In this document: in pieces, positions 6,801 through 59,520 of the stretch | How positions within the stretch are numbered: the first letter of the stretch is position 1 | How the letters are laid out: the number at the start of each line of letters is the position of its first letter | IMG/VR virus record: IMGVR_UViG_2571042445_000002 | Source of the DNA: a virus | Taxonomy: Duplodnaviria > Heunggongvirae > Uroviricota > Caudoviricetes | Reading direction: 5' to 3' (one strand) | DNA: 64,000 nucleotides | Program-made: the position numbers and the translations under genes | Notes under the pieces: generated by a model | Databases searched by the model: none | Told to the model about the DNA's origin: nothing | What the model saw: only the letters and a program-made list of their open reading frames with translations

Positions 6801-7327
6801 ATGCTATACGCCTAACTTATAATAATAACTATGGATTCCTAATAACTAATACTGGATATAGTTTCCAGATATCAACCACTGGGCAAAATGTTAATGGTGA
6901 TGTCGTTTACACTCCATTAAAGATAGATGGCGGTGATGGTCGCGTAGAATTAGGACGTGCTGATGGTCATGTAAGGGTTATGGGGAATTTATCTGCCGCT
7001 GGTCAGATTACCCCTGGTAACTATAGTAATTTCAACACGAAATATCAGGCTAAAAACACAGCATATGCCAACATTCATGGATGGCATAAGGATACATCAA
7101 CTAAGGTGATGATGCAGTGGGGGTTTATAACAAATTTAACTCCAGGAAGCGTGGTTAAATTTCCGACTACTTTTCCTGAGGCGTGTGCGGTAGTTGTGAT
7201 TTCGCCTCACAGCGGGAATGCTGTCAATTCAATTCTTTATACATACAACCACTCAGTCACTGGTTTTACAGTGAAAAGTAGCTCCACTGATAAAATATAT
7301 GCACAGTATGTTGCTTATGGTTATTAA
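3818..7327 (+). CDS. tail fibre protein with internal 40-aa shaft repeats
   Basis: 1169 aa; about 8 copies of the unit TGNQSTTGNAATATKLQTARTIGGVSFDGSANIDLPGVNK; followed directly by a Tfa gene. Confidence 0.8.
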   Translation: MCADKVKNIVTLSSDISAPLIADMQYFELYSTEALNRKMKNIVLPGVYCGFEPVPGDGLFVRITSEKTEGRGAASIDVGKCQISVQQVSDVLVPVEAGVTTIIVLEANYEHGVKTSQVDSSSDISAARIIALVDEEIASNQIELCRVIVPDNAQAVTADMISTEYRANRAVGVEFSSALDSDEEYKAATPLAISTLNKLKAPVDSPEFIGIPKSPTPEQGTNSTQIANTAFVQAAITALIDGSPSALDTLKKIADAINNDPQFSQTINAALALKAPLLSPAFTGVPTAPTASQGTNNTQIATTAYVRAAISALVGSSPEALDTLNELAAALGNDPNFAATMTNALAGKQPLDATLTALADLATGANKLPYFTGTDTVAQTDLTSVGRDILAKTSTLAVIQYLGLRELGTSGEKLPLLSTANTWSARQTFSAGITGTLTGNADTATKLKTARKINGVAFDGSADITLTPEDLGLTDIASQAGNAVQRSGDTMGGQLKIGTINALRIFNQDFGLIFRRSEEYLHLIPTNEGEGENGDIGPLRPFSINLRTGLVSIGNGVKVGGGITGNLTGNADTATKLKIARTIGGVSFDGSANIDLPGVNKTGNQSTTGNAATATKLQTARTIGGVSFDGSANIDLPGVNKTGNQSTTGNAATATKLQTARTIGGVSFDGSANIDLPGVNKTGNQSTTGNAATATKLQTARTIGGVAFDGTANINLPGVNIAGNQNTTGNAATATKLQTARTINGVKFDGSANISIPTITSRGRVTALTSTTQGATTGLQMYEAYNNGYPSAYGNVLHLKGATAAGEGELFIGWSGTSGAHAPVHVRSRRDTDTASWSEWAQVYTSKDSIPGVNTTGNQNTTGNAASATKLQTARTIGGVSFNGTANIDLPGVNKTGNQSTTGNAATATKLQTARTIGGVSFDGTANINLPGVNIAGNQNTSGNAATATKLKTARKISGVAFDGSADITLTASHVGALPTTGGTVTGEIISSSQNAIRLTYNNNYGFLITNTGYSFQISTTGQNVNGDVVYTPLKIDGGDGRVELGRADGHVRVMGNLSAAGQITPGNYSNFNTKYQAKNTAYANIHGWHKDTSTKVMMQWGFITNLTPGSVVKFPTTFPEACAVVVISPHSGNAVNSILYTYNHSVTGFTVKSSSTDKIYAQYVAYGY
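5564..5923 (+). repeat. three near-identical tandem 120-bp repeats inside the tail fibre gene
   Basis: period exactly 120 bp (5564, 5684, 5804); more diverged copies continue to about 6720. Confidence 0.9.
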
Positions 7328-18350: not shown

Positions 18351-18539
18351 GAATGTATGATTTATATCGTCACTAAAAAACAGCATCTGATAAAAATTCT
18401 GTTGATCTTTCTAATGTTCAGGCTTATATTCATGCCGTCGTAGCAAATTCTGCGACCGGGTTTAGCAGCCTGAATGTTAGTGCGGACAACCGCAGATATC
18501 CGATATTGCGGTATTTTTGTGTCCGTAAAACCGCGTTAC

Positions 18540-18677
18540 GCCCAAATTATGGTGGGGCGTGATGGGGAGGCTTCGGCCTGCTGGTTTCACTAACGCCAGT
18601 CTGCTAACCCCGTCACGTCCTGCCACCTGTTTAGCAGCGGGTAGCAGGTTGTTAAACCTGTTAGTGAGGCCGTAACT
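18540..18677 (+). ncRNA. candidate c4-like antisense RNA / structured leader
   Basis: hairpins (e.g. gaggc-UUCG-gcctg) in the leader just upstream of icd-like gene. Confidence 0.25.
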
Positions 18678-21126: not shown

Positions 21127-24100
21127 TTGGACAAAATAATTGATTCAATTAGCCAGGCCACCAGCATTGGGGCGCTGATTGAAATTGTTAGTCGGTTGCA
21201 TAAACCGCGAGCTGTAGTGACCTTTGGCGTTAAGAAAGTCGATGGCGTCAGTATTCAGAAAACACGCCGGGCAGCAAACAACGCCGCAGTAAATCTTCTT
21301 AATTCCCTTCCGCCTGGCTTCGATGGGGCGAAATTAACTGACGAACAGCGCCAGATTCTTGCCGGGTATACCGGTGAAGGCGGCCTGACAGATGGTGAGG
21401 GCAGCCAATACGAATACTATACGCCACAGTTTATGGCAGAAGGTATATGGGATCTCTTCGGCGACTACGGTATTGATAGCGGTCACGTACTGGAACCGTC
21501 AGCAGGCACAGGTATTTTCCAGGAGACAAAACGGCAGGGCATGATAATGACCAGTGCCGAACTGTCTCCGATCTCCGGTCGAATAAACCAGCTTTTGCAC
21601 CCGGAAGATGATGTGAATATCGGGGCGTTTGAGGCGCTGGCGGCGAAAGATGCAATGTATGACCACGCAGTTGGTAACGTACCGTTTGGCGAAGGGCGTT
21701 CCGGCGTCGCCGGGCTTGATCCGGCATATGCAAACGAGAAGAACGTTGGCAATTATTTTGTGCTGCGCACGATCGACAAGGTTAAGCCTGGTGGACTAAT
21801 TGTATTGGTGGTGCCGAATGGCATGACCGATGGTACGAAATACAAAAAATTGCGCGATAAAGTCAGCCGTAAAGCGGAATTTTTGGGCGCGCATCGTATG
21901 CCTTCTGGTACGTTCAGCGAATCCGGTACAGATACCGTGGTGGACGTATGGGTATTGCGTAAACACCCGGAAACCTTCCTGGAGATGATCCCCGACACGG
22001 ATGATGCAACGCTCAAATCGGCAAACGTCCTTTGGGATACCTTCCTCAAAGGGAAATGGTTTACAACCGAAGGGAAGCGATTTGTTTACGGCGACATGGA
22101 ACGCACCAGCTTCCGCAATACCCTGGTGGTGAAAAAGGACGGTCGTGTATCCAATGAGTCGATGAAAACCGCGTTATCATGCCGCTTTGAAAGCCGTATT
22201 AATTGGGATTTGCTCGGAGTAACTACCCAGGCATGGCAGGGCGCAAAAGTAGGGGATAAGCGTCTTGTAGGCGGTATCTGGCATGAGTTTGATGGCCTGA
22301 AATGGGTTAAGGACACGACAACCAAATCCTCCGCGCTTGATGTAAGTCGATATGGTGTTTCGACGTTTGGCGATCTGCAGATCGCGTTCCAGTCAACAAA
22401 CGGGATTCTGGCTTTGTCATGGGACCAGATATCGGCGATCGCGTCCGACTATCCATCGGTTGTCAGTGATGAAGTGGCAGCAATGATTCGCTTTGCTGGC
22501 AAACAGCGAGAAAAAGACAGGGAGCGCGTTATGCGCGGTGCGTTGATAGGGCAGTTGATCAACAAGGCACTTGATTTGCGTAACCTGGGGGTGAACGTTG
22601 ATGACAAACTGGCAGATGCATCCCGCCTGGCGGCAGCAGAAGTTGCGAAGTATGGACCACCGCACGCGATTAAGCTGAATGGGCTTGCTGAAGCTGGCGC
22701 TAAAAACTGGATGACGTTCACTGGCAATGTGAAACAGGATGGTTCCACTTCTGACCTTCTGGCAGGGCGACTTGATGTAACGGATGGTGCTGCCGGTATT
22801 GACTTTACACGTCCGGAACAAGTGATAGCACATCTTTTCAGTGATGTAGCCCTTAATCCTATAACGCTGGGCGACTTTCGTGAGGCGTTTGCTGGTGAAC
22901 TGCCAGAGGACGACGACGCGGCCCTTGAATACCTGGCGAAATTTGATGATATCGCTATTGATGGGTATGGCTGCCTGCTGCCGATGGACCGCGCCACCAG
23001 CGGCGATATTGTAACCAAAACAGCATTGCTGGTGGGCTGGCGTGATGCATCAACAGGTGAGCAGAAAGCGAACTTTGAGCGTCAGTTGGCGAAAATCGAA
23101 GAGAAACGCATTTTCACGCCACTAAATAAAGTCACCGTTAATCTGAACGCCCGCTGGCTGGATCGCCGCTTGATAAAAGAGTTCCTGGCAGAGCAGGGCT
23201 ATGACGAGTTTAAGTACACTGAACCTGATCTGAAGGTCGTCGATGGCATTCTGGTATCTCCGGACGATTACGAAGGTAAGGACGGGGTATTTACCGGCTA
23301 TCAGCTACGAACCGTAAACGGCAAAAACGGGAATGAGTTCAAGAAGGCCAACAATAAAGACGGCTTCCTGAACCAGTTAGAAAACTACCTGAACGGTGTT
23401 AAACCGCGTGGGCAGAACGCTAACGAGTACCTGGATAAAATTGCTCAACTGGAAGTTAGCTTTAACGACTGGTTACGCACCCACCCGCAGGCGGATCAGA
23501 TAGCCCGTGACTATAACGACGCATTCAATGGCTTCATTCCGTTCACGCACTCTAACGCACCGCTTGGCCTGGAAGGGATTAGTGGAAAGCGCATTCCTCT
23601 GACTTATCAGAATGAAGAAGTTCGTCGCTTGTCAGAAGATGGGCGCGGCATCATGGGATTTGGTACCGGGCTGGGTAAAACCACGACCGCGCTTGCGCTT
23701 GAGGCGTATAACTTCGAAACAGGTCGTACTAAACGCACGTGTATTGTTGTTCCGAAGGCGGTTTATCAGAACTGGTATCACGAGGCACAGAGCTTCTACA
23801 GTGCTGATGCCTTCGCCAATATGATGTTTATCGGTCTGGATGAAGTTCGTGATGACAGCGGAAATATTCTGACCGCTCCGGTGCTTGATGAAAATGGCGA
23901 ACCCCGCCTCGACAGTAACGGGCAGCCTCTTACCAGAAATGTTGTGAAAGAGTCCGCCAGCGCCGTTATCGTTCAGCGCATGAACATGATCCCGTCGTCA
24001 AATTGGCGAACGGTCATCATGACAAAAGAACAATTCGCGTCTATCCCGCTACGAGAAAAAACCATCGAGGAGAACTCACAGCAAGCTGTCTTTAATGCTG

Positions 24101-27100
24101 TGGAAATGGGGCGTCTTGACCTGGCGTCTGGTAAACACCGTGATGCGCAGAAGAAGAACAAGATTAAGGATCAGGCCGCGAATACCGGTACAACGAAGAA
24201 GCAGAATATCCCGTACTTTGAGGATATGAACTTCGATAGCGTGATAGCCGACGAGGGGCATAACTACCGCAACTCCTTTAATGCCGGGCGTGAAGCGGGA
24301 CAACTGGCATATTTGCCTAACCCGGCAGTATCCAAGATGGCCCGCGACATGGCTGTAAAAGCTGCGTACATGATGAAACGCAACAACGGGCGTGGTGTAG
24401 TCATGCTGACGGCAACACCGCTGGTGAACAGTCCGATTGATGCCTTCAACATGCTGTCTACTGTCATTCCGCAGGAAGAGTGGATGCGCATGGGCATCAT
24501 TACGCCTGATGATTTCGTTCGTGTGTTTGGTAAAACAGCCACAGTTCAGGTCCAGAAAATTTCCGGGGAAGTGGAAGAGAAGCAGGGGCTGGTTGGCTTC
24601 CAGAACCTTGATGGCCTGCGTGGTATTTTCCATCGCTGGACTACTCTGAAGACTGCTGCGGACGTCGGGGCGACGGTTAAAATCCCTGATATTGTCGAGA
24701 ATACCTTGCAGATCCCGATGACAGGGGAGCAGGAGGCTGCTTATGAAGAGCTTCGTAAGCGTGCACAGGAGTTAAGTAGTAAAGATGCGCTGACGGTTGA
24801 TGAAAACGGGCATATCACAAACGAAAAACCGGATGATTTCATCTTCTCCATCATCCGCGACATGGATAAGGTTGCTATAGATCCGGATCTGTATGCCAGT
24901 GCGATTACATTCCAGTTCCCCGTTGAGCTTGCAGACAAGGTAAAAGCTATTGCTGATGCCCTGCCAAAAGTAGCTGGCGGTAAAGTGGCAGATGATGCAG
25001 ACGAGGCCGAAGAAGACGGCGCTGGTGGGCTGGTTAGTACGCGCACCAGTAAGGTAGTGAAGACCACCTTTAGTGAACATCCGGCGCATGTTGAAATACG
25101 TGCCAGCATTGAACTGGAAGCTGAAATACTGAAGGCCATTGCTGCCGCCGGGATTGATATGCAGCAGGTATCACACCCAATCCCGCCGAAGTATGCCGCG
25201 CTGATCGAAAACCTTCGTGAAGGTCTGAAGAACGGTAAACAAATTGTCTTCATTGATGAAAAAGCCCAGCACCAGAAGCTGCGCCGTATTATCGCCAGTG
25301 CACTGCAAATGCCGGAGCAGGAGATAGGCATTATCAATGCGACGACCGTTAGCCAGGCTGGCGGCATCAAGCTGAAGAAGGTGAATAAGCCGACTGAACC
25401 TACTCCGAATAAAAATGGTGAATACAAAGAAGGGGCATGGGAAACCTACTACAGCAAACTTGCCCAATATGAGGATTATCTCTCAGCTAAAAATGATGCT
25501 GGCCTTGAGGGTATGGAAGGCATTGCCGCCGACTATAACGAAGGGCGCACGCGCATAATTATCTGTAACAAGAAGGCTGAAGTAGGTATTAACCTGCATA
25601 TCGGGACAACCGATATCCACCACCTGACACTACCCTGGACACCAGCCAGTATCGACCAACGAAATGGGCGCGGTGCGCGCGTAGGTTCACCGCAAGAGAA
25701 GGTCAATGTTCACTACTATTGTGGCAAAGGCACATTCGACGACTTCCGTCTGGATACGCTGAAACGTAAGAAAGACTGGATCAAGATGGTGATGACCTCC
25801 GACATGTCAGAGATCGCCAATGGTGATGCGGATGATGCTGATGAACGCGCCATTATGCTGGCGGCAAACCCGGAAGAACGCCGCGCAATCATGGCTCGCC
25901 AGGCGCAAGAGCGTGAAGAACGTCTGAAACTGAAAGCACAGCGCGAGGCCAACAATGCTCTCGATATCTACCTGAAAGCGGCAAACGCCGCTGGAAAAGA
26001 TATCGGCATGATGGAGACAGAACTGAAAAGCGCGATGGAACAGATAGAGTATTACCAGCGAAATCTTGACGACCTGATAAAAGCGGGTACGAACAGGAAT
26101 GGGCAAAAATTCGCGCTTGAGCAGTTGAGTAGCTACAGAAAACGTGCGCGGGTGCTGCGGTTTGCGATCACCAGGGCAAAAGACGCGGATACCATAATGA
26201 AACGCTCTCGTGGTGATGTGGAGCGCGCTATTAAGTCTGGTGTGCTGGATATCAGTATCGATGTTATTCAGAACCCACAGGAATATATGCGCACTGACAA
26301 GAATATCCTGTTGCATAAAGGTAGTTATTACCGTGCAGTCATTGATGATCGCGAAACAACAGCGATTGTCCGGGTGGAAAAAATTGACGGTGAAAAAGCA
26401 CAATACCTCTGCCGTATCGCCTGGCTGGATAGAGCAAGTCGTTACGCTCGAGCACCGGGGTCAATCGTTACATTGCCGTTTGACTCTGTGATTGAAGCGG
26501 TAACTTTTGAAGAGGGGGTAGCTGAATCGCGCGCAACGGCTGCGCGTGGTGTTCAGTGCCACCAGCTATCAACAATACTTACTCGCGATCAGTTCTATGA
26601 TGCTATTCGCAATGGGGTAATGAATGTTATTGCTGGTAAACCTGGTAATGCATGGGGCGGTGGGTCAGCTATTAAATACTGGGCATATCGCACAGATGAT
26701 GGTCAGATCGCGCTGTCATCGGCCTATGATGGCGTGATAGGCCAAAAAATCGGGCGAGCATCGGATATAGCACCTGAACGATGGATATATCCAGATGGCA
26801 ACGATGAGGCGCTGAAGCGTGAAGTGGCAAAAATACAAGCCAGTGATAACCCGCTGAATATCGTGGACGGCGAGGGATTCCTCCAGGCATTGTATGGGTA
26901 TGATTACATCCAGGGAATGCAGGCATGGGGCGCACAGGCAACGATGGATGATGTTGTCCAGGAGTTCGAAAACTGGATGGCTGGGCGTGGTCTGTCAGGT
27001 CGTTCGCTTAATAAAGTCACTTCTGAAGATATTCTTAGCTTGTTCCGCAAACCGTCCGGAGAAGGTCTGGAATCATTCTGGAGGACCGTGCTGGCATACC

Positions 27101-27963
27101 GTTTATTCAAGGGCAGAATGAAAGCCTTTAGCAATATCGATGATATTGAACGGATGTTTAATCAGGTCAAGATCGCCAAAATTAAGACGAAGATCGAAAA
27201 AACACGTTCTGCGCTGGTGGCCTGGCGCGATGCATTGTTTGAGCAATATAAATCACTCAGTGATGCAGATGGATGGGCGGCATTGGAACAGTTGGCGAAT
27301 AATGGGGTAGATGGAGCGAAACTCGCCATAGTCCAGGCTGATAACCCCCTGGAATCACCGGCAGCACAGTGGATTAAGGTGGGGGCTGTCATCAATGCAT
27401 TTGATGAAAAACACATTAGTAAGGACGATTTTGCTGATGCTGTTTCTGTTAATCGCCTGGTAGAAATGGCTACCCGCCGCGCCCGTGAGTTGAAAGACGG
27501 TGACTATGTGAATGAGTTGCCGGATGCGCTCAAATCAGCAACGTGGCAAGACTATGTATCGCTGAAAAACGGCGGGGCCACCGAATCAGAGATCGCGGAA
27601 AGGCTTGAACAGGCTGAAAGCAAAAGAGAAGAGCAGGCGGCAGTGGCTGAAGCCAGAGCTGATGAAGCGGCGAATGATGACTATATCATTGTGGTTAATG
27701 ATAAGCCGATTCGCGCTAAGGCGCGTGTTCGCGGGCGCTGGTGGAGTGTCAGCGAGGACGTCGGTGCGGTTTATCTCATTGCCGACCAACCAGGTTCCTC
27801 GACAATACGGAACGCCAAAGACGCGATTAAGAAGATTGGCGGGCGTTTCTGGAATTTTGAAGCAAACCCGGTTGCTGATGTGAACTTTGACCGTCCTGCA
27901 TGGATGGTATCTACGCGTTACTCGGTAGATGAACTGCGTAAAATAATCGCCGATGCGGCCTAA
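21127..27963 (+). CDS. darB: DarB-like giant methyltransferase-helicase, putative antirestriction protein
   Basis: 2278 aa, TTG start after GAGGGGGG; MTase-like motifs LEPSAGTGIF and VGNVPFG; SF2 helicase motifs GFGTGLGKTTT, DEGHNYRN, QRNGRGARVG; size near P1 DarB. Confidence 0.65.
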   Translation: MDKIIDSISQATSIGALIEIVSRLHKPRAVVTFGVKKVDGVSIQKTRRAANNAAVNLLNSLPPGFDGAKLTDEQRQILAGYTGEGGLTDGEGSQYEYYTPQFMAEGIWDLFGDYGIDSGHVLEPSAGTGIFQETKRQGMIMTSAELSPISGRINQLLHPEDDVNIGAFEALAAKDAMYDHAVGNVPFGEGRSGVAGLDPAYANEKNVGNYFVLRTIDKVKPGGLIVLVVPNGMTDGTKYKKLRDKVSRKAEFLGAHRMPSGTFSESGTDTVVDVWVLRKHPETFLEMIPDTDDATLKSANVLWDTFLKGKWFTTEGKRFVYGDMERTSFRNTLVVKKDGRVSNESMKTALSCRFESRINWDLLGVTTQAWQGAKVGDKRLVGGIWHEFDGLKWVKDTTTKSSALDVSRYGVSTFGDLQIAFQSTNGILALSWDQISAIASDYPSVVSDEVAAMIRFAGKQREKDRERVMRGALIGQLINKALDLRNLGVNVDDKLADASRLAAAEVAKYGPPHAIKLNGLAEAGAKNWMTFTGNVKQDGSTSDLLAGRLDVTDGAAGIDFTRPEQVIAHLFSDVALNPITLGDFREAFAGELPEDDDAALEYLAKFDDIAIDGYGCLLPMDRATSGDIVTKTALLVGWRDASTGEQKANFERQLAKIEEKRIFTPLNKVTVNLNARWLDRRLIKEFLAEQGYDEFKYTEPDLKVVDGILVSPDDYEGKDGVFTGYQLRTVNGKNGNEFKKANNKDGFLNQLENYLNGVKPRGQNANEYLDKIAQLEVSFNDWLRTHPQADQIARDYNDAFNGFIPFTHSNAPLGLEGISGKRIPLTYQNEEVRRLSEDGRGIMGFGTGLGKTTTALALEAYNFETGRTKRTCIVVPKAVYQNWYHEAQSFYSADAFANMMFIGLDEVRDDSGNILTAPVLDENGEPRLDSNGQPLTRNVVKESASAVIVQRMNMIPSSNWRTVIMTKEQFASIPLREKTIEENSQQAVFNAVEMGRLDLASGKHRDAQKKNKIKDQAANTGTTKKQNIPYFEDMNFDSVIADEGHNYRNSFNAGREAGQLAYLPNPAVSKMARDMAVKAAYMMKRNNGRGVVMLTATPLVNSPIDAFNMLSTVIPQEEWMRMGIITPDDFVRVFGKTATVQVQKISGEVEEKQGLVGFQNLDGLRGIFHRWTTLKTAADVGATVKIPDIVENTLQIPMTGEQEAAYEELRKRAQELSSKDALTVDENGHITNEKPDDFIFSIIRDMDKVAIDPDLYASAITFQFPVELADKVKAIADALPKVAGGKVADDADEAEEDGAGGLVSTRTSKVVKTTFSEHPAHVEIRASIELEAEILKAIAAAGIDMQQVSHPIPPKYAALIENLREGLKNGKQIVFIDEKAQHQKLRRIIASALQMPEQEIGIINATTVSQAGGIKLKKVNKPTEPTPNKNGEYKEGAWETYYSKLAQYEDYLSAKNDAGLEGMEGIAADYNEGRTRIIICNKKAEVGINLHIGTTDIHHLTLPWTPASIDQRNGRGARVGSPQEKVNVHYYCGKGTFDDFRLDTLKRKKDWIKMVMTSDMSEIANGDADDADERAIMLAANPEERRAIMARQAQEREERLKLKAQREANNALDIYLKAANAAGKDIGMMETELKSAMEQIEYYQRNLDDLIKAGTNRNGQKFALEQLSSYRKRARVLRFAITRAKDADTIMKRSRGDVERAIKSGVLDISIDVIQNPQEYMRTDKNILLHKGSYYRAVIDDRETTAIVRVEKIDGEKAQYLCRIAWLDRASRYARAPGSIVTLPFDSVIEAVTFEEGVAESRATAARGVQCHQLSTILTRDQFYDAIRNGVMNVIAGKPGNAWGGGSAIKYWAYRTDDGQIALSSAYDGVIGQKIGRASDIAPERWIYPDGNDEALKREVAKIQASDNPLNIVDGEGFLQALYGYDYIQGMQAWGAQATMDDVVQEFENWMAGRGLSGRSLNKVTSEDILSLFRKPSGEGLESFWRTVLAYRLFKGRMKAFSNIDDIERMFNQVKIAKIKTKIEKTRSALVAWRDALFEQYKSLSDADGWAALEQLANNGVDGAKLAIVQADNPLESPAAQWIKVGAVINAFDEKHISKDDFADAVSVNRLVEMATRRARELKDGDYVNELPDALKSATWQDYVSLKNGGATESEIAERLEQAESKREEQAAVAEARADEAANDDYIIVVNDKPIRAKARVRGRWWSVSEDVGAVYLIADQPGSSTIRNAKDAIKKIGGRFWNFEANPVADVNFDRPAWMVSTRYSVDELRKIIADAA

Positions 27964-32515: not shown

Positions 32516-32591
32516 TGATGGTGTAGCTCAGTGGTAGAGCAGTTGGCTGTTAACCAACTGGTCGGTGGTTCGAATCCACTCACCATCGCCA
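32516..32591 (+). tRNA. tRNA-Asn (anticodon GTT)
   Basis: 76 nt; acceptor gatggtg/caccatc, anticodon loop CTGTTAA, T-loop TTCGAAT, 3' CCA encoded. Confidence 0.85.
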
Positions 32592-32593
32592 AT

Positions 32594-32669
32594 GCCGGTT
32601 TAGCTCAGTTGGTAGAGCGCCTGCCTTGTAAGCAGGATGTCAGCGGTTCGAGTCCGTTAACCGGCACCA
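32594..32669 (+). tRNA. tRNA-Thr (anticodon TGT)
   Basis: 76 nt, 2 nt after tRNA-Asn; anticodon loop CTTGTAA; T-loop TTCGAGT; CCA encoded. Confidence 0.85.
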
Positions 32670-32671
32670 AC

Positions 32672-32760
32672 ACAACAGGTAAGGGTATTTTGCGACGTCG
32701 GAGATCGCCGAGCTTGGCAGAGGGTTCGAATCCCTACGAAGTACCCTTACCGTTGTGATG
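32672..32760 (+). ncRNA. tRNA-like hairpin element or pseudo-tRNA
   Basis: 15-bp stem acaacaggtaagggta/tacccttaccgttgt enclosing a T-arm-like GGTTCGAATCC; no full cloverleaf. Confidence 0.3.
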
Positions 32761-32857
32761 AATGCACAGGCTGATGTGCCGCAACTACAGTAGTGCGCGC
32801 TTTGCGGGGCTTGCTACAACCCTGTGTCGGAGTTCAGCACCGACCATCACAATCACT

Positions 32858-32944
32858 GGAGAGTAGGGAGCATGGTGCTCAAGCGGTCTTGAAAACCGTC
32901 CCATTGCGCAAGCGATGATGGTTCGATTCCATTACTCTCCGCCA
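32858..32944 (+). tRNA. tRNA-Ser-like (anticodon TGA), long variable arm, atypical D-arm
   Basis: acceptor ggagagt/actctcc, anticodon loop CTTGAAA, long variable arm, T-loop TTCGATT, CCA encoded. Confidence 0.5.
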
Positions 32945-33200
32945 GCGCAACGTTAAGAGTATTTGGCTAATTAAGCGAATGCCGGAAGCAGAACCGGATC
33001 ACCAAATGCTCTTACCATTGCGGTGAATGCGGCTAAGCGCACGCGGAACAGTTAAAACAGTAAAGGTGGTCTTTTTACTGGCGTAACGAGAATCCATAAG
33101 TGATCCGGCGTTAATTGTTAACTGGTTAACGTCACCGGGAGGCACCCGGCACCGCAACCTAACAGCAATGGCGTTTTGTCTTAAAAGGTGGCTGCAAGTG

Positions 33201-33329
33201 ATGGATTTTTGGGCGTTTGCCGATAAAAACCCGGAGTGGACATTATTGTTTCTGCTGGTGGTTGCATACGGGGTAGAGCAAGCGGCAAAAGCCTTACGCG
33301 GTTCTGGCAAAAAGCGTAAGCGTAATTAA
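33201..33329 (+). CDS. small membrane peptide (42 aa)
   Basis: ATG ORF MDFWAFADKNPEWTLLFLLVVAYGVEQAAKALRGSGKKRKRN, one TM helix plus basic tail; below the ORF-track size cutoff. Confidence 0.25.
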   Translation: MDFWAFADKNPEWTLLFLLVVAYGVEQAAKALRGSGKKRKRN

Positions 33330-33338
33330 CAGTAATCT

Positions 33339-33414
33339 GGCCCTTTAGCTCAGTGGTTAGAGCGGGCGACTCATAATCGCACGGTCACCGGTTCAAGTCC
33401 GGTAGGGGCCACCA
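33339..33414 (+). tRNA. tRNA-Ile2 (anticodon CAT, lysidine type)
   Basis: 76 nt, nearly identical over D-arm and anticodon arm to E. coli tRNA-Ile2 as I recall it; CCA encoded. Confidence 0.8.
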
Positions 33415-42083: not shown

Positions 42084-42746
42084 ATGGTCAGCACTTTTCA
42101 GGTGTTCCCCAAATACAAATGCCACAGCATCATTCGGGCATCGAAAATCAAAGATATTGTTATTGTCGGCGAAGCTTATGCGCCCATTTTTGGCAGTATC
42201 GAAGTCGTTGAGCCAAAAGGAATGACGCTTCGTGTTGATGGTGTGTTCTTGGAAAAATTCCGACCGCAAATAGGAGGATATCTCGTCACTGCTGAAAATG
42301 GCTATCTGGTCTATGTGCCAGAGAAAGCATTTGAAAAATGCTATAGCCGGGTTAACGACGCCTCCGAAAATGGGGTATCGCTCAGCATTGAAGGTCACAA
42401 TGGGGTGACATTCATTACAGCCAGGGACGTAACTATTTCTGCTGGCGGTATCGCTACTCTACAAGAAGAAATCGACCTTGAAGCAGCCGACTTTTCTGAC
42501 GCGCTGATGTGGCTGAAGGATGGCAAGAAAGTTGCCCGACGTGGGTGGAACGGCGAAAACCAATTCTGCTGGCTGGTTCCTGAAGGACAGTACCCGGCAC
42601 GAATGGAAGCCATTAAGGGATATTTTCCCGGCGACCTCGTTCCGTATGGTGCTTATTTCGCCTTAAAAAATGCACAAGGTGTAGTTGTTCCGTGGGTGCC
42701 TTCAGTTGGCGACCTGCTGGCCTGTGACTGGTTTGTTGTGGAGTGA
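42084..42746 (+). CDS. DUF2829 (Tad2-like) domain protein with N-terminal extension
   Basis: 220 aa; C-terminal ALMWLKDGKKVARRGWNGENQFCWLVPEG...VVPWVPSVGDLLACDWFVVE matches the DUF2829 signature. Confidence 0.5.
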   Translation: MVSTFQVFPKYKCHSIIRASKIKDIVIVGEAYAPIFGSIEVVEPKGMTLRVDGVFLEKFRPQIGGYLVTAENGYLVYVPEKAFEKCYSRVNDASENGVSLSIEGHNGVTFITARDVTISAGGIATLQEEIDLEAADFSDALMWLKDGKKVARRGWNGENQFCWLVPEGQYPARMEAIKGYFPGDLVPYGAYFALKNAQGVVVPWVPSVGDLLACDWFVVE

Positions 42747-42752
42747 TTTAAC

Positions 42753-43550
42753 GTGGAAAATACCAAGAACATTCAATATCGCCTGCGTAACGGCCTGCTG
42801 GTGGATGTAAACGATGATATGTCCCTGCCCTTTGCCACCATTGAGCGAACCATCCTTACATACCTGGGTTTAGACGAAGAGTTAGATAGTGAGAATGGCA
42901 TTGCTATCTGGCGTGACGGAAAAACGGGAGTCAGACGTTTTATTACGGCAAGAGGCATTCAGTGCACACAGGAAGAATTGTTTGAACTGGCGCAGTCTTA
43001 TGGATGCATCGCGTTAGATCCCCTGCATGACCCAGCCATAGCGCAACAACTCATTCGAGAGCTGTCGCTTTCGGTCACGCCAATAATCTTCCGCCAGGGA
43101 ACCTTAACCGGCACATGGCGTGTAGAACGCATCTCTAAATATCAGCCATATAATATCCATTTGAACGGCACTATTACTGGTGTGGATCAACCAGTAGCAG
43201 GTGAAAACAAAGACCTGGAACTTGCAGTAATGATGGCTGCTTGTCGCGTGCTTGGCCTGGGCAAGCAGATGTTTATCCATTTCCCAAACGGCGCGGAAGG
43301 CGAAGTAGAGCTGATTTCCTGCGACTTTTCCTTAACCTGGATGCTTGATGAATTCCTGGACAAAACAGTATTCCGTGCTGAAGAACTGGATATGTATGTC
43401 ACCTCAAGTATTCCTAATGACGTGAAAGTTGAGGCCATCGCTACAGCCAGGGCGAAATGCCGTGCGGCGATTGCAGAACAGGCCAAAGAAGAACAGTCCG
43501 ATGAAGTCGCGGCAGATGTGGAAGCAGAGGATGCTGATGCTGACGCCTAA
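42753..43550 (+). CDS. hypothetical protein with acidic tail
   Basis: 265 aa, C-terminus EEQSDEVAADVEAEDADADA. Confidence 0.35.
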   Translation: MENTKNIQYRLRNGLLVDVNDDMSLPFATIERTILTYLGLDEELDSENGIAIWRDGKTGVRRFITARGIQCTQEELFELAQSYGCIALDPLHDPAIAQQLIRELSLSVTPIIFRQGTLTGTWRVERISKYQPYNIHLNGTITGVDQPVAGENKDLELAVMMAACRVLGLGKQMFIHFPNGAEGEVELISCDFSLTWMLDEFLDKTVFRAEELDMYVTSSIPNDVKVEAIATARAKCRAAIAEQAKEEQSDEVAADVEAEDADADA

Positions 43551-43630
43551 AAGCAAGAAATTAGCTGGCTGACAGCAGAAAAAATCATTGAGTGATAGTA
43601 GGAAGGCCGCTTGGTTGAGCGGGCTTCTTT

Positions 43631-44011
43631 TCAAATATTGGAACCATATAGTTCACGTAGTTTTTCCGCTACTGAAGATACGGGGATTTCACCAGTTGCA
43701 GCCCCCACCGCAAGTTCCACCAGCACGGGAGAATCATATACCTGTATACCGTTACGGCGTAGAAATAGCAGCGCACTGTTTAGCGCGGTACGCTTATTGG
43801 CATCATTGAATATATGCCCTCTCGCTGTAGCCACCAGGTAGGTGGCGGAGACTTCGAAAAGGTCGGTGATCTCTTCGTAGGCAACTCTGGCCTGAACTCT
43901 CCCGATAATGGCCTCTGCCCTACCCGGATCTGACATTCCCGGCAGGCCGCCGTAGCGGTTTATATTCGCATCATGAAGCGCAATAAGTTCTTCCGGTGAT
44001 ATATGCCTCAT
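43631..44011 (-). CDS. doc: Doc toxin (Fic-family)
   Basis: 126 aa, near-identical to P1 Doc as I recall it ([17 protein letters not shown]...[19 protein letters not shown]). Confidence 0.9.
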
Positions 44012-44232
44012 TATCGGTTAACCAGTTCCTTGTTGGTGGAGTCCAGGGTGTCAAACAGGGATGCAAATTCAGCATCCAGCGCCGCTTTTTTGTAGGCTTC
44101 GAAAGTAGCCTTGCTGACAATTACTGCTGGCTCACGGCCTCTGCGGGTGATTTCAACCTCTTCCCCAGCTTCAACATTGTTGAGCACTTCAGAAAGGTTG
44201 CCGCGCGCGGTACGGAAGTTAATGGATTGCAT
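44011..44232 (-). CDS. phd: Phd antitoxin
   Basis: 73 aa from [41 protein letters not shown]; overlaps doc by 1 nt. Confidence 0.9.
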
Positions 44233-44408
44233 AAACACCTCGTGTACTCGTTATGTGTACACAATTATAAACCTCACAGGCATAAAGCACCAGCACTTTG
44301 CGGCTTAACAAACCTCTAGGCAGGTCATTCGTTGCCTAATGTCCGAACTGCTAAAGCATCCAAGTTGCTGTAGAATCACCGCCAATTACTTAAACCTGAA
44401 ATAAGTGG

Positions 44409-45971
44409 ATGAAAATGACAAGTATTCAACAACGTGCAGAGCTTCATCGCCAGATCTGGCAAATTGCTAACGATGTCAGGGGGTCAGTCGATGGATGGGA
44501 TTTTAAGCAATACGTTCTGGGCGCACTTTTCTACCGTTTTATCAGCGAAAATTTTTCCAGCTATATTGAAGCCGGTGATGACAGTATCTGTTATGCGAAA
44601 CTGGATGACAGCGTAATTACTGATGACATTAAAGACGATGCCATCAAAACTAAAGGCTACTTCATCTACCCCAGTCAGCTTTTCTGCAACGTAGCTGCGA
44701 AAGCAAATACCAATGACAGACTGAATGCGGATTTAAACAGCATCTTCGTTGCTATCGAAAGTTCTGCTTACGGTTACCCTTCAGAAGCTGACATCAAAGG
44801 TTTGTTTGCTGATTTCGATACTACCAGTAACCGCCTGGGTAACACCGTTAAAGATAAAAATGCCCGCCTGGCTGCGGTTCTGAAAGGGGTTGAAGGGCTA
44901 AAACTTGGTGACTTCCACGAACATCAGATTGACCTGTTCGGTGACGCCTATGAGTTCCTGATTTCTAACTATGCGGCGAATGCTGGTAAGTCAGGCGGCG
45001 AGTTCTTTACACCGCAGCACGTCTCTAAGCTGATTGCACAACTGGCTATGCACGGGCAGACCCACGTTAACAAAATCTACGACCCGGCAGCAGGTTCCGG
45101 TTCGCTGTTGTTGCAAGCTAAAAAACAGTTTGATGACCATATCATCGAAGAAGGTTTTTTTGGTCAGGAAATCAACCATACGACCTATAACCTGGCGCGT
45201 ATGAACATGTTTTTGCACAACATCAACTACGACAAGTTTGATATCAAGCTGGGCAATACGCTGACTGAACCGCACTTCAGAGATGAAAAACCGTTTGATG
45301 CCATCGTTTCTAACCCGCCGTATTCGGTGAAATGGATTGGCAGCGATGACCCGACGCTGATTAACGATGAACGTTTTGCCCCGGCTGGCGTTCTGGCCCC
45401 CAAATCCAAAGCTGACTTTGCGTTTGTATTACATGCACTGAACTATCTTTCTGCCAAAGGTCGTGCTGCGATTGTCTGCTTCCCAGGCATTTTTTACCGT
45501 GGCGGCGCGGAGCAGAAAATCCGTCAGTATCTGGTTGATAATAACTATGTCGAAACCGTGATTTCACTGGCACCGAACCTGTTCTTTGGCACCACCATTG
45601 CCGTAAACATTCTGGTGTTGTCTAAACATAAAACAGATACAAAAGTTCAGTTTATTGATGCCAGCGAACTGTTCAAAAAAGAGACTAACAACAATATCCT
45701 GACCGATGCCCATATCGAACAGATTATGCAGGTATTTGCCAGCAAGGAAGATGTTGCTCATCTGGCGAAATCTGTTGCGTTTGAGACTGTTGTCGCGAAT
45801 GACTATAACCTGTCGGTGAGCAGCTATGTGGAAGCGAAAGATAATCGCGAAATTATCGATATCGCTGAGCTGAATGCGGAACTGAAAACCACGGTCAGCA
45901 AAATCGACCAGTTGCGCAAAGATATTGATGCGATTGTGGCTGAAATTGAAGGCTGCGAGGTGCAGAAATGA
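44409..45971 (+). CDS. hsdM: Type I restriction-modification methyltransferase subunit
   Basis: 520 aa; SAM motif [10 protein letters not shown] and catalytic SNPPYSVKW. Confidence 0.85.
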
Positions 45972-47254
45972 GCGAGTTGAGTTATCTGGAAAAATTGCTG
46001 GATGGGGTTGAGGTTAAGTGGTTGCCATTGGGGAACGTCGCTGAAATTTATGGTGGCCTAACAGGAAAGAGTAAATCTGATTTTGAGAACGGTAATGCCA
46101 GATATGTTTCATACAAAAAAATATTTGGTTATTTAGATGTGAATGATTACCCTACTGATTATGTATATATTAGTGAGGGAGAAAGACAAAATAAAGTAAG
46201 ATATGGGGATGTTTTATTTACTGGCTCATCTGAAATTGCTGATGAAGCAGGCATGTCCTCCGCCGTTACAGTACACTTCGATGAATCAGTGTATTTAAAC
46301 AGCTTTTCTTTTGGTATCAGATTCAGTAACAGCATAAAAATCAAACCGGAGTTCGCAAAATACCTTTTTCGAACCCATTTCATGCGCTCTGAAATAGCAA
46401 AAACAGCTAGTGGTGTAACACGCTTTAATATTTCAAAATCAAGATTTAAAAAAATACTGGTTCCTATCATTTGTCCTAATGATCCAGAAAAATCCCTTGC
46501 CATCCAGTCTGAAATCGTTCGGATTCTGGATAAATTTACTGAGCTTACAGCTGAGCTTACAGCTGAGCTTACAGCTGAGCTTACCATGCGTAAAAAACAG
46601 TACAACTACTATCTTGACCAGTCGCTAAGTTTTAAAGAGGGTGAGGTCGAGTTGAAAACGTTGGGAGAGATGGGGACACTTATAAGAGGCAAACGCTTTG
46701 TGAAATCCGACATAATTCCCAAGGGAGTACCGTGTATTCACTACGGTGAAATGTATACCCATTACCGCATCTGGGCGGATAAAGCAAAATCGTATATCTC
46801 TGTTGAATTAGCGTCCAAGTTAAGAAAAGCCTCATGCGGAGATGTTGTTTTTGTCTCTGCGGGTGAAACAATTGCAGATATTGGTCGTGGAACAGCCTGG
46901 TTAGGCGATGAAGATGTTGTTATTCATGACGCATGTTTTTTCTATAAAAGTTCATTGAACCCCAAGTATGTGGCCTACTTCTCAAGAACAAATTTCTTCC
47001 ACGATCAGATTAAAAAATCGATCTCTTCGGGGAAAATTTCTGCCATCAATGCCAAAGGCTTTGAAAAAGTGATTATTCCAGTTCCTTCACCAGAAGAACA
47101 AGCACGCATCGTTGCTTTCTTGGACAAATTCGACACATTGACAAGCTCCATCACCGAAGGCTTACCCCGTGAAATAGAACTACGCCAGAAGCAGTACGAG
47201 TACTATCGTGATTTACTGTTCAGTTTCCCAAAACCTGAAACTGTCAGTAATTAA
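45968..47254 (+). CDS. hsdS: Type I restriction-modification specificity subunit
   Basis: 428 aa; two AT-rich target-recognition domains around a central conserved region with TAEL repeats; ATGA overlap with hsdM. Confidence 0.8.
46541..46585 (+). repeat. 12-bp tandem repeat (gagcttacagct, 3.75 copies) encoding (TAEL)n in HsdS
   Basis: direct read of the sequence; protein [22 protein letters not shown]. Confidence 0.9.
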
Positions 47255-47375
47255 TTGACCATTGCTACCGACCGGGCCACCTTAACACCCGGTCAGTATA
47301 TAGACTATTTTTTACACGCTGGAAGTCACCATTAACGCCCTTCCGGCCCTTGCCAGACGGCACAAAGGATGCGCT

Positions 47376-50300
47376 ATGACTCATCAAACACACACCATTG
47401 CTGAATCCAATAACTTTATCGTTCTTGATAAATACATCAAAGCTGAGCAAACAGGCGACAGCTATCAGAGCGAATCGGACCTGGAACGTGAACTGATTCA
47501 GGACCTGCAAAATCAGGGCTATGAATTTATATCCGTAAAATCACAGTCAGCGATGCTGGCCAACGTTCGGGAACAGCTTCAGAGCCTCAATGGTGTGATG
47601 TTTAATGACAGAGAGTGGCGGCGTTTCACGGAGCAGTATCTGGACAACCCGAGCGATGGCATTCTGGATAAGACCCGTAAAATCCATATCGACTATATTT
47701 GCGACTTTATTTTTGATGACGGGCGTCTTGAAAATATCTATCTGATAGATAAAAAGAATCTCATGCGCAATAAGGTGCAGATTATCCAGCAGTTTGAACA
47801 GACGGGTTCTCATGCTAACCGTTATGACGTCACGATCCTGGTTAATGGTTTACCGCTGGTGCAAATCGAACTAAAAAAACGCGGGGTGGCGATTCGTGAG
47901 GCTTTCAACCAGATACATCGTTACAGTAAAGAGAGTTTTAACAGCGAAAATTCCCTGTTTAAGTATCTGCAACTGTTTGTCATTTCTAACGGCACCGATA
48001 CCCGTTACTTTGCCAACACCACAAAGCGCGATAAAAACAGTTTTGACTTCACAATGAACTGGGCGAAATCAGACAACACGCTGATTAAAGACCTCAAAGA
48101 CTTTACCGCTACCTTTTTCCAGAAACATACTCTGCTGAATGTTCTGGTGAACTACAGCGTTTTTGACAGTAGTCAGACGCTACTGGTGATGCGACCGTAC
48201 CAGATTGCAGCTACCGAACGAATTTTATGGAAAATCAACAGTTCCTATAAAGCGAAAAACTGGTCCACTCCCGAAAGTGGTGGCTTTATCTGGCACACCA
48301 CCGGTTCCGGTAAAACACTGACCAGCTTTAAAGCCGCGCGTCTGGCAACAGAACTGGACTTTATTGATAAAGTCTTCTTCGTGGTCGACAGAAAAGACCT
48401 CGATTACCAGACGATGAAGGAATATCAGCGTTTTTCGCCAGACAGCGTCAACGGCTCGGAAAATACCGCAGGACTTAAACGAAATCTGGATAAGGACGAT
48501 AACAAAATTATCGTCACCACTATTCAGAAACTTAATAACCTGATGAAAGCAGAAAGCGACCTGCCTGTATACAATCAGCAAGTGGTGTTTATATTTGATG
48601 AATGTCACCGCAGCCAGTTTGGAGAAGCACAGAAAAACCTGAAGAAGAAATTCAAACGCTATTATCAGTTTGGTTTTACCGGCACACCTATTTTCCCGGA
48701 AAACGCCTTAGGCTCAGAAACAACCGCCAGCGTATTTGGCCGTGAATTGCATTCATATGTTATTACCGATGCGATTCGTGACGAAAAAGTGCTCAAATTC
48801 AAGGTGGACTACAACGATGTGCGGCCACAGTTTAAGTCTTTAGAGACAGAAACTGACGAGAAAAAACTGAGTGCGGCTGAAAATCAGCAGGCGTTTCTTC
48901 ATCCCATGCGTATTCAGGAAATCACGCAATATATCCTGAACAACTTCCGCCAGAAAACCCACCGTACTTTCCCTGGTTCCAAAGGTTTTAATGCCATGCT
49001 GGCAGTAAGCAGCGTGGATGCTGCAAAAGCCTATTATGCGACGTTTAAACGGTTACAAGAGGAAGCCGCTAATAAATCGGCTACCTATAAACCGCTGCGT
49101 ATTGCGACAATCTTCTCCTTTGCCGCCAATGAAGAACAAAATGCCATTGGTGAAATTTCCGATGAAACTTTTGATACCAGCGCAATGGACAGCAGTGCTA
49201 AAGAGTTTCTGGACGCTGCAATTCGTGAATATAACAGCCATTTTAAAACTAACTTTAGCACCGACAGTAACGGTTTTCAGAACTACTATCGTGATTTAGC
49301 CCAGCGGGTTAAAAATCAGGATATCGATCTGCTAATTGTCGTGGGGATGTTCTTAACCGGCTTCGATGCTCCAACATTGAACACGCTATTCGTCGATAAA
49401 AACTTACGTTATCACGGCCTGATGCAGGCATTTTCCCGCACTAACCGCATTTATGACGCCACTAAAACCTTCGGTAATATCGTCACTTTCCGGGATCTGG
49501 AACGCTCAACTATTGATGCCATAACGCTGTTTGGTGACAAAAACACCAAAAATGTGGTGTTAGAAAAGAGTTATACAGAGTATATGGAAGGCTTTACTGA
49601 TGCTGCTACAGGTGAAGCTAAACGCGGCTTCATGACAGTAGTTTCAGAACTGGAACAACGGTTCCCTGACCCTACCAGTATTGAAAGTGAAAAAGAGAAG
49701 AAAGACTTCGTTAAACTGTTTGGCGAATACCTGCGTGCCGAGAACATCCTGCAAAACTATGATGAATTTGCCACGCTAAAAGCCCTGCAACAAATCGATC
49801 TTAGCGATCCTGTTGCGGTAGAAAAATTCAAAGCAGAACATTATGTGGATGATGAAAAGTTCGCTGAATTGCAAACAATTCGTCTCCCTGCTGATCGCAA
49901 GATTCAGGATTATCGTTCTGCCTATAACGATATTCGCGACTGGCAGCGCCGTGAGAAAGAAGCTGAGAAAAAAGAGAAATCAACCACTGACTGGGATGAC
50001 GTAGTTTTTGAGGTCGATTTGCTGAAGTCTCAGGAAATAAACCTGGATTATATCCTTGGACTGATTTTCGAACACAACAGACAAAATAAAGGCAAGGGCG
50101 AAATGATCGAAGAGGTCAAACGCTTAATTCGTTCAAGTCTAGGGAACCGTGCTAAAGAGGGCCTGGTGGTCGATTTTATTCAGCAAACGAACCTGGATGA
50201 TTTACCGGACAAAGCCAGCATCATTGACGCATTCTTTACGTTTGCTCAACGCGAACAGAAACGTGAAGCAGAAGCATTGATAAAAGAAGAAAATCTCAAT

Positions 50301-50492
50301 GAAGAGGCGGCGAAACGCTATATTCGCACATCTTTAAAACGCGAATACGCCACCGAAAATGGTACAGGATTAAATGATACATTACCAAAACTTAGTCCGT
50401 TAAATCCGCAATATAAAACGAAAAAACAGACGGTTTTCCAGAAAATCGTCTCGTTTATTGAGAAGTTTAAAGGCGTAGGCGGAAAAATATAG
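47376..50492 (+). CDS. hsdR: Type I restriction-modification endonuclease subunit
   Basis: 1038 aa; Walker [15 protein letters not shown]-box [12 protein letters not shown]2 helicase layout. Confidence 0.85.
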
Positions 50493-50523
50493 CCCAATTC
50501 GTGTTTTTCTTGCGGGTTCTTAA

Positions 50524-50907
50524 TTAAACCCGCAAGAGATCGTGGGATTCTAAATAGCTAATATACTCCCCTTCCCCATCCGAGATAACACCTTCGTAAT
50601 ACTCGCGCTGCTCGTTGAGTCTGGATTTTGCAGCTTCCAGTTGTTTTGTTAGCTCTGCAATACGGCAAACATCGTTGATACGCCTTTCCTCTAATGCGTT
50701 GTTCTCATTCAGTAGTGCCAAAGCAACCTTTGGATTAAAGGCAGCAATAAATTCAGCGTTGTTTTTCAGAACGTGTTGCGCAATGGCCTGACTACTTAGT
50801 CGGACCTCATAACCACGTGCGCCACGGTGTGGTTTATATGAGTCCCAGTCTCCCCACGTTGCTTTCACTGCCGCCTCACGCAGTACCTGATAGTCAATCT
50901 TGCTCAC
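50524..50907 (-). CDS. Ead/Ea22-like prophage early protein (paralogue family)
   Basis: 127 aa; N-terminal 65 aa near-identical to the gene at 55782-56273; GTG start after GGAGGCAACCA. Confidence 0.4.
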   Translation of the reverse strand: MSKIDYQVLREAAVKATWGDWDSYKPHRGARGYEVRLSSQAIAQHVLKNNAEFIAAFNPKVALALLNENNALEERRINDVCRIAELTKQLEAAKSRLNEQREYYEGVISDGEGEYISYLESHDLLRV

Positions 50908-58720: not shown

Positions 58721-59369
58721 TTAAGTTGAATTGTGAGATTCGCCGTTGTACATTCACAACCGATTGGTACACCGGTCAACTTTTTGAGACAAACCGTTTG
58801 GTTTTTCGTATGATTGCCGCCGCCATACCAATGGCGGTGCAATATAGGTGGCTGAAAAGCCCCCGTTGACTCACGGTGTTCCAACCTTTATTGCGCCGCC
58901 ACCAGACCGTGGAACAGTCGATGGCGGCTCCGAAAGCAAGGAGTCACTACACTATGAACAGCTACTGTCTTTTCCCATCACTCGTTGTCCGCCACTCACG
59001 CGATAATCTGCATTCTTTACTCGCGCTGGGGGTGTCAAAATGACCGTTCGCTACCTCAACTTTCAAATCCAGAACATCACTGGCGGTTGCTATGACTGGT
59101 TTGTCACTCTCGGAAAAGAAGTGATCACCGGAAAGCTGGATGAAGTGAAAGCTAAAGCAATGGCCTACGCCTGCAAGCAAGCCCAAAAGAAGAAAAGAAA
59201 AGCATAAGAAAACACACAGTTGCGCCCTGGCATTATCGTGGGGTATATTTCTACGGCACCTTAGAAAAACGGGTGCCGGGATTGGAACCCCGGATAATGT
59301 CAAAGGCGACACAGACGCCGAACGCGTCTTTTTTTGTGTCATGCCATCGCACAGCCATACTTAGCGTTT

Positions 59370-59520
59370 AGCTCAGAGATCAATGGTAGTGCTGGCTGGG
59401 CTGCCGAAAGGCAGGCCGGTTCCCTTTGACGCCGGTAGTTCCAACCCAGTCAGTGCTACCGCCATTGAGATTGGAACCTCACGCGGTAGCTCCTTAACTT
59501 AGTCAAAGGAGGCTGCCAAT
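59370..59520 (+). ncRNA. candidate c4-like antisense RNA / structured leader (copy 2)
   Basis: hairpins (ctgcc-GAAA-ggcag) upstream of the second icd-like gene. Confidence 0.25.

Follow-up and report, generated by a model that had tools for sequence, protein, structure and literature searches.

A phd-doc addiction module and a Type IC hsdMSR operon head to head on a D6-like phage-plasmid

We analysed a 64,000-nucleotide stretch of viral DNA (Caudoviricetes; IMG/VR record IMGVR_UViG_2571042445_000002), referred to below as the window, in which a P1-type phd-doc toxin-antitoxin module adjoins a Type I restriction-modification (R-M) system, hsdM-hsdS-hsdR. We consider it highly probable that these are two independent, well-known modules that stand head to head on a D6-like phage-plasmid of the P1 supercluster. 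Enzymatic activity and plasmid stabilisation are inferred here from the sequence; the steps of the mechanism rest on established family knowledge, and the evolutionary steps and their order are drawn from sequence comparison.

The phd-doc module and the hsdMSR operon

The toxin gene doc (43631-44011, minus strand) is an open reading frame (ORF) of 126 amino acids (aa) that encodes the Fic-fold toxin of a P1-type addiction module (Pfam Fic/DOC), and the antitoxin gene phd (44011-44232, minus strand) encodes a 73-aa protein (Pfam PhdYeFM_antitox); the phd stop codon overlaps the doc start at 44011. Doc contains the Fic motif HIFNDANKR at residues 66-74, which fits HxFx(D/N)(A/G)N(K/G)R, and the Phd/YefM antitoxin lies directly upstream in the same operon, which is the composition of a type II Phd/Doc module. 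A first-pass annotation of this DNA had described both proteins as near-identical to those of P1. That description is exact for Phd, which is identical at 73 of 73 residues, and slightly generous for Doc, which is identical at 113 of 124 (91%), with every difference within the C-terminal third. At the DNA level, alignment of the 3' third of doc (43631-43768) shows about 40 sites that differ from the P1, IncF and D6 alleles, and the same segment is identical in the D6-like plasmids LR890273 and CP056699, neither of which carries hsd. The P1-type promoter and operator region, Pphd (44233-44308, minus strand), ends in a remnant of the P1 humD stop codon (44305-44307) and differs from the annotated P1 Pphd by one single-nucleotide polymorphism only, at 44273 in the spacer. 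Its identity to the P1 promoter region suggests that it may be autoregulated here as well.

In P1, the Fic-fold kinase Doc halts translation via EF-Tu, and Phd is a labile protein that neutralises Doc and autoregulates the promoter, with the result that plasmid-free segregants are arrested or killed. The module of the window would in the same way stabilise the plasmid prophage through the arrest of segregants. The spot between doc and the neighbouring isaA-like gene (43551-43630) is variable. It is an 80-bp spacer in the window, with a terminator-like hairpin at 43607-43622; elsewhere it holds pdcA, as in D6 (3850-4047), P1 and IncF plasmids, or an extra 1.1-kb gene, as in CP056699 and CP104667.

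The hsd unit (44309-50567, plus strand) comprises hsdM-hsdS-hsdR with a short leader and trailer; its guanine-plus-cytosine (GC) content is low, and D6 and six D6-like plasmids lack it. Transcription of phd-doc and hsdM is divergent, with 176 bp between the start codons of phd and hsdM, and the earlier statement that hsd lies downstream of phd-doc therefore holds in plus-strand coordinates only. The methyltransferase gene hsdM (44409-45971, plus; 520 aa; Pfam HsdM_N and N6_Mtase) encodes the N6-adenine methyltransferase subunit, and its stop codon overlaps the start of the specificity gene hsdS (45968-47254, plus) in an ATGA at 45968-45971. Between hsdS and hsdR lie 121 bp of intergenic DNA that contain a promoter-like site (47282-47311); hsdR (47376-50492, plus; 1038 aa; Pfam HSDR_N, SWI2_SNF2, T1R_D3-like and EcoR124_C) encodes the translocase and endonuclease subunit. 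Directly after the hsdR stop codon, a GC-rich hairpin, CTTGCGGGTT...AACCCGCAAG (50509-50537), can be read from the sequence; it is kept in all aligned hsd-bearing elements and is probably a terminator.

The ORF check found no internal stop codons in doc, phd, hsdM, hsdS or hsdR. HsdR aligns over residues 1-1038 with HsdR of EcoR124I (PDB 2w00, 2272 bits), and HsdM aligns over residues 1-520 with HsdM of EcoR124 (PDB 7bst_D, 1160 bits). The nuclease residues D151, E165 and K167, the TGSGKT motif at 309-314 and DECH at 408 are present in HsdR, as are DPAAGSG at 225 and NPPY at 302 in HsdM. The first-pass annotation had called this a complete Type I R-M system, and the three intact ORFs with their catalytic motifs bear this out. 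Pfam and PADLOC domain matches agree with the assignments of both hsd and phd-doc. The Type IC family was first defined via cross-hybridisation and subunit complementation; in the window, the kinship of HsdM and HsdR over their full length, the hsdM-hsdS-hsdR order and the two-domain HsdS frame with its TAEL repeat identify the operon, as judged from its sequence, as a complete Type IC system of the EcoR124 family.

HsdS consists of a first target-recognition domain (TRD1, about 46046-46447), a central conserved region (46448-46669) and a second domain (TRD2, about 46670-47083), all on the plus strand. Its N-terminal, central and C-terminal conserved regions match EcoR124 HsdS in alignment, and both TRDs are different; the half-sites are therefore expected not to be GAA and RTCG, those of EcoR124I. 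A 12-bp tandem repeat in the central region (46539-46584, plus) encodes three TAEL units at HsdS residues 194-205. The TAEL repeat sets the spacer length of the recognition site, and three repeats give an N7-type spacer, as in EcoR124II, EcoDXXI and EcoprrI (Loenen et al. 2014, PMC3874165). Correspondingly, the helix formed by the three units would hold the two half-sites at an N7-type spacing. An M2S methyltransferase would mark a bipartite target, with each TRD of HsdS reading one half-site, and at an unmodified target HsdR would join the complex, translocate DNA at the expense of ATP and then cleave it. Type IC systems are safe when they establish in naive hosts owing to control at the level of assembly (PMC12707154), a property that suits carriage by transmissible elements.

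Backbone, junctions and mosaic structure

The flanks of the locus are syntenic with phage D6 and with D6-like plasmid prophages (the P1g2 group), not with P1. On the doc side, a cre-like recombinase gene, dut, a DUF2829/Tad2-like gene and the isaA-like gene precede doc and phd; on the hsdR side lie ea22-like genes, a DUF968 (pdcB-like) gene and a metallophosphatase gene. The gene order of P1 proper, with humD upstream and pdcA, pdcB, lpa and pacAB downstream, is not found, and the window lacks C1 operators of the P1 type. We compared seven hsd-free relatives, namely D6 and the six D6-like plasmids LR890273, CP069647, CP056699, CP021537, CP104667 and CP042620. All seven retain phd-doc, and in each the slot held by hsd in the window contains about 4-10 kb of small genes (about 7 kb in the closest relatives) of variable content, including an orf109-like gene, humD, hot, DUF551 genes, ea22-like genes and small genes of the lambdoid type. 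In NZ_CP021537.1 (our locus L010, 3944-5431) a group II intron reverse transcriptase/maturase lies between humD and hot in the same slot. More widely, none of the D6-like and P1-like relatives examined lacks phd-doc, whether it carries hsd or not.

Composition separates the two modules. The hsd unit has a GC content of 0.432 versus 0.483 for the rest of the window, where no equal-sized window falls below 0.449, and its tetranucleotide L1 distance from the rest is 0.231, with a maximum of 0.165 for equal-sized windows elsewhere. Within hsdS, the remark that the target-recognition regions are AT-rich was borne out, with GC contents of 0.346 for TRD1 and 0.406 for TRD2 against a mean of 0.443 in sliding windows over hsdM and hsdR; outside the cassette, every 402-bp window has a higher GC content than TRD1. 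The GC content of phd-doc is 0.505, which is backbone-like. These values, together with the seven relatives, support the view that hsd is a compositionally distinct defence unit that has probably been exchanged horizontally. In this element phd-doc appears to be a resident module of the backbone that was not imported with hsd, because its doc 3' allele is shared with hsd-free relatives, its GC content is backbone-like and its transcription is divergent from that of hsd. The first-pass annotation had proposed an exchangeable defence and addiction cassette; comparison of composition and of relatives showed a locus that is neither backbone-like throughout nor conserved in all relatives, and the proposal stands for hsd and falls for phd-doc.

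The same annotation had noted that no operator motifs occur between 43550 and 50520. Our motif scans covered the window only. The P1 C1 operator consensus, ATTGCTCTAATAAATTT, has no match in the whole 64 kb with up to 3 mismatches allowed. A de novo k-mer search of the window found a different, asymmetric motif, TTAATTTTCTAACAT, which is over-represented, with 18 sites at up to 3 mismatches versus 2.6 expected (for example 17112, 18318, 29928, 31173/31190, 34822/34839, 39281, 40678, 53230/53247, 58057/58074 and 58705), several of them in closely spaced inverted pairs. These sites are probably the element's own C1-type repressor operators. None lies between 40693 and 53229, a gap of 12.5 kb that is much wider than the cassette, and at the observed density we estimate the chance of a cassette-sized gap at about 15-25%. 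The observation was thus true yet uninformative, as the gap extends beyond the cassette and is statistically unexceptional.

The left junction of the hsd unit is at 44308/44309: homology to P1, and to all hsd-bearing elements, runs through phd, Pphd and the humD stop codon as far as 44308, and P1 diverges at 44309. The breakpoint corresponds to P1 coordinate 87969, where the P1 RefSeq record (NC_005856) notes the end of a homology, 98% identical, to DNA upstream of EcoDXXI hsd; this record also notes the R124/3 flanks. The junction is identical in pIP1206, phi456, 673R5 and pET6.1-IncY. On the right (50568-50580), about 12 bp of P1-derived trailer, CCCCTTCCCCAT (50568-50579), runs into an ea22-like gene at a CCCAT microhomology. 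The canonical right junction, in which the hsdR trailer leads into P1 DNA upstream of pmgT/pap, was found in 538 PLSDB plasmids, and the non-canonical junction of the window in one, CP085065 (NZ_CP085065.1). The locus thus has the upstream P1 phd-doc breakpoint of P1-flanked Type IC loci and lacks their downstream P1 flank. The truncated ea22-like ORF (50524-50907, minus strand; 127 aa; Pfam Ead_Ea22) has its last 17 codons antisense to the hsdR trailer, and the hsd-free plasmid LR890273 has an intact homologue of 129 aa, which departs from it at the fusion point, after ...YEGVI(A/S)DG. The fusion ORF is a scar of the hsd insertion. No insertion sequence (IS), transposase ORF or terminal repeat bounds the block, flanking direct and inverted repeats are at chance level only, and no Rfam family was found within 43631-50579. 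An IS-bounded or transposon-borne cassette was accordingly rejected for the window, in contrast to pIP1206 with its IS5 and IS1.

The hsd locus is itself a mosaic. In a three-way analysis of informative sites among the window, CP085065 and pET6.1-IncY, a recombination tract (46487-50538) of pET6.1-IncY-type, P1-like DNA lies inside a CP085065-type, D6-like locus, with crossover intervals at 46487-46538, just 5' of the TAEL repeat, and at 50433-50538, at the 3' end of hsdR and the hairpin; there were no discordant sites. Against CP085065, the window is 99.3% identical over 43400-46640, has an unrelated TRD2, is 96.3% identical in hsdR and becomes identical again across the junction. Against pET6.1-IncY, it is 99.8% identical over 46479-50579 (8 mismatches in 4101 bp) and 95% identical at the DNA level in doc-phd-hsdM, and TRD1 does not align. 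TRD1 is identical to that of CP085065 at 134 of 134 residues. By these alignments, the HsdS of the window is a hybrid of a CP085065-type TRD1 and a pET6.1-type TRD2. In the product of the CP085065-type hsdS (NZ_CP085065.1, our locus L001, 8569-9858; also L018 and L026), residues 226-387 are 100% identical to residues 5-166 of EcoR124I HsdS, so that the N-terminal TRD of EcoR124I and part of its N-terminal conserved region occupy the position of the C-terminal TRD, with two TAEL units. The N-terminal TRD of EcoR124I recognises GAA.

An assembly chimera was considered as the source of the mosaic and rejected, as several independent contigs in public assemblies match the window at 99.7-100% identity throughout 7.55 kb, both crossover intervals included; one of them, AYOG01000020.1 of GCA_000498875.2, is 100% identical over 7551 bp. 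Among ten sampled loci, three have the window allele with three TAEL units, five have two units and two have the CP085065-type allele. The five siblings with two units (L017, L019, L020, L024 and L025) differ from the window over the 7551 bp by 0-14 mismatches and a 12-bp gap. On this comparison, siblings with two and three units represent a natural spacer switch of the EcoR124I/EcoR124II type within one lineage.

The D6-like arrangement with hsd is very rare in three of the sets searched, with one record in PLSDB and no matches among GTDB representative genomes or in IMG/VR. We nevertheless rejected the idea that it is very rare overall, as an index of public assemblies, drafts included, has the exact ea22-like fusion protein in 366 blocks. 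The idea that the hybrid HsdS was unrecorded was likewise dropped. The exact protein is absent from the protein clusters, and coverage of the hsdS gene stays below 80% in all PLSDB records, yet the protein occurs in 33 blocks of a contig index, and all six of the places listed have the same D6-like context.

Origin of the arrangement

We propose the following history. A canonical P1-type Type IC locus would have been the source of hsd. A left crossover in or beside the conserved phd-doc/Pphd DNA would have left the canonical junction intact at the humD stop codon, and the conserved DNA is likely to have served as the left homology arm for the transfer. The right join would have been an illegitimate event, mediated by microhomology, within the ea22-like gene, and about 7 kb of small accessory genes, among them humD, hot and DUF551 genes, would have been lost in the insertion. 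Later, a 4-kb tract comprising the TAEL repeat, TRD2 and hsdR may have been exchanged with the Type IC locus of a P1-like IncY phage-plasmid by homologous recombination in the central conserved region of hsdS, giving the hybrid HsdS. TRD reassortment of this kind was reportedly demonstrated experimentally by Gubler et al. in 1992 as a route to new Type IC specificity. Slippage or unequal crossing-over in the 12-bp repeat would then have given the siblings with two and three TAEL units.

Several points weigh against parts of this account. The ancestor of the 4-kb exchange could be either window-type or CP085065-type. The interval 43770-44160 is near-identical, and the left crossover is not placeable within it. 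The hsd-free plasmid CP056699 is already P1-type up to 44308, and hsd could therefore have entered such a backbone without a crossover inside phd-doc. In addition, neither TRD of the window matches a characterised TRD in the sets searched, and the recognition sequence is therefore not predictable.

Another explanation is a single co-mobile cassette for defence and addiction, in which phd-doc and hsdMSR would pass jointly from one P1-like phage-plasmid to another. The block 43641-50579 is common to 462 PLSDB plasmids at a coverage of at least 80% (83-94%), the integrated IncF segment in the NCTC9008 chromosome retains it, and in IncF conjugative plasmids such as pIP1206 a pdcA'-doc-phd-hsdMSR fragment lies between IS5 and IS1. 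Thus phd-doc and hsd do travel jointly in such IncF plasmids, as one P1-derived fragment. For the window, however, a single cassette is unlikely. Its doc has the 3' allele of the backbone lineage, as in hsd-free relatives, the GC contents of phd-doc and hsd differ (0.505 versus 0.432), and all D6-like and P1-like relatives examined have phd-doc regardless of hsd. Type IC operons of chromosomal islands (ETEC1732 and 30EVA2) occur without phd-doc, with homology confined to 44392-50493, and the block of the window has no bounding IS elements or terminal repeats.

It is still less probable that what is left of hsd is decaying or silent and has lost its restriction activity. Damage is visible in some relatives, as hsdM and hsdR of 673R5 are annotated in pieces and hsdS of phi456 and of NZ_CP089136 is interrupted by an IS. 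The window, however, has three full-length ORFs with all catalytic motifs and an end-to-end match to EcoR124I, and the identity of independent contigs over 7.5 kb argues for maintenance.

The least probable explanation is functional coupling, either through joint control from the divergent 176-bp region or with Doc as an abortive-infection back-up for an inhibited R-M enzyme, by analogy with EcoprrI-PrrC; hardly more probable is a variant in which Doc, as a toxin back-up or a co-regulated partner, would be released upon inhibition or loss of the restriction complex. EcoprrI is a Type IC enzyme paired with an anticodon nuclease, PrrC, and provides a precedent, and the head-to-head arrangement with its constant junction is conserved in hundreds of plasmids; yet each module is common without the other, Pphd is unchanged from P1, which has no hsd, the sequence gives no sign of interaction, and common descent from one P1-derived insertion fully explains the adjacency.

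The preferred reading therefore remains that of two independent modules, a resident phd-doc and an acquired hsd. Tyndall et al. (1997, Mol Microbiol 23:729) reportedly described Type IC hsd loci with P1 phd-doc DNA at their flanks. The P1 RefSeq annotation mentions the pairing as well, hundreds of public plasmids carry it, and it is thus real but ordinary. The discovery value of the locus is accordingly small: standard pipelines annotate it, and identical DNA is present in public assemblies. It is a worked example of a defence operon that moves among P1-like, D6-like and IncF replicons with a left junction that was constant wherever checked, and natural populations of one phage-plasmid lineage display two classical routes to Type IC specificity, namely TRD reassortment and the gain or loss of TAEL units.

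Other features of the window were recorded. A 2278-aa ORF (21127-27963, plus strand) has N6-adenine methylase and SNF2/helicase domains and resembles, we presume, the anti-restriction protein DarB of P1; if it is DarB-like, the element has both an anti-restriction function and an R-M system. A 220-aa protein (42084-42746, plus), two genes from doc, has a Tad2-like (Thoeris anti-defence 2-like, DUF2829) domain (E = 1.6e-22). Two C4 antisense RNA genes (Rfam RF01695) lie on the plus strand, one at 18545-18630, just downstream of its a1b1 target element (18424-18476), and the other at 59379-59466, preceded by an isrK-like small RNA (59256-59334), an arrangement that suggests two regions for the control of immunity or of an antirepressor. 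A cluster of four tRNA genes (32517-33414, plus) comprises Asn-GTT, Thr-TGT, Ser-TGA and Met-CAT. In the ORF at 3818-7327 (plus; 1169 aa), 12-13-mers recur with a 120-bp period at about 5577-6050, in four to five copies each, which indicates 40-aa tandem repeats; the product is possibly a tail-fibre-like protein.

Relation to known systems

Compared with phd-doc of P1, the module of the window has an identical Phd, a Doc that is 91% identical, conserved Pphd/operator DNA and the same overlap of the phd stop and doc start. It differs in the C-terminal third of Doc, where it has a divergent allele that is characteristic of one D6-like sublineage, and in the position after doc, where P1 and D6 have pdcA and the window does not.

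The P1-like elements phi456, vB_EcoM-673R5 and pET6.1-IncY (NZ_CP043218.1) share the phd-doc/Type IC arrangement, but their backbone is that of P1 and their right junction is canonical, with pap and pmgS after hsdR. The P1-flanked Type IC loci EcoR124I/II, EcoDXXI and EcoprrI likewise have a functional-looking phd-doc that adjoins hsdM in divergent orientation, an identical left breakpoint, and the hsdM-hsdS-hsdR order with hsdR as a separate transcription unit. Unlike these loci, the window has a D6-like backbone, neither P1 nor IncF, and its right join is non-canonical, with other genes displaced.

The closest relatives of the enzyme itself are EcoR124I and EcoR124II, of plasmids R124 and R124/3, with which it shares the full-length alignment of HsdR and HsdM, the conserved regions of HsdS and the TAEL repeat. 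Both TRDs of the window HsdS differ from those of EcoR124I, and its count of three TAEL units matches EcoR124II, EcoDXXI and EcoprrI. R124 and R124/3 differ by a switch between two and three TAEL units, and a comparable switch is seen among the sibling contigs of the window.

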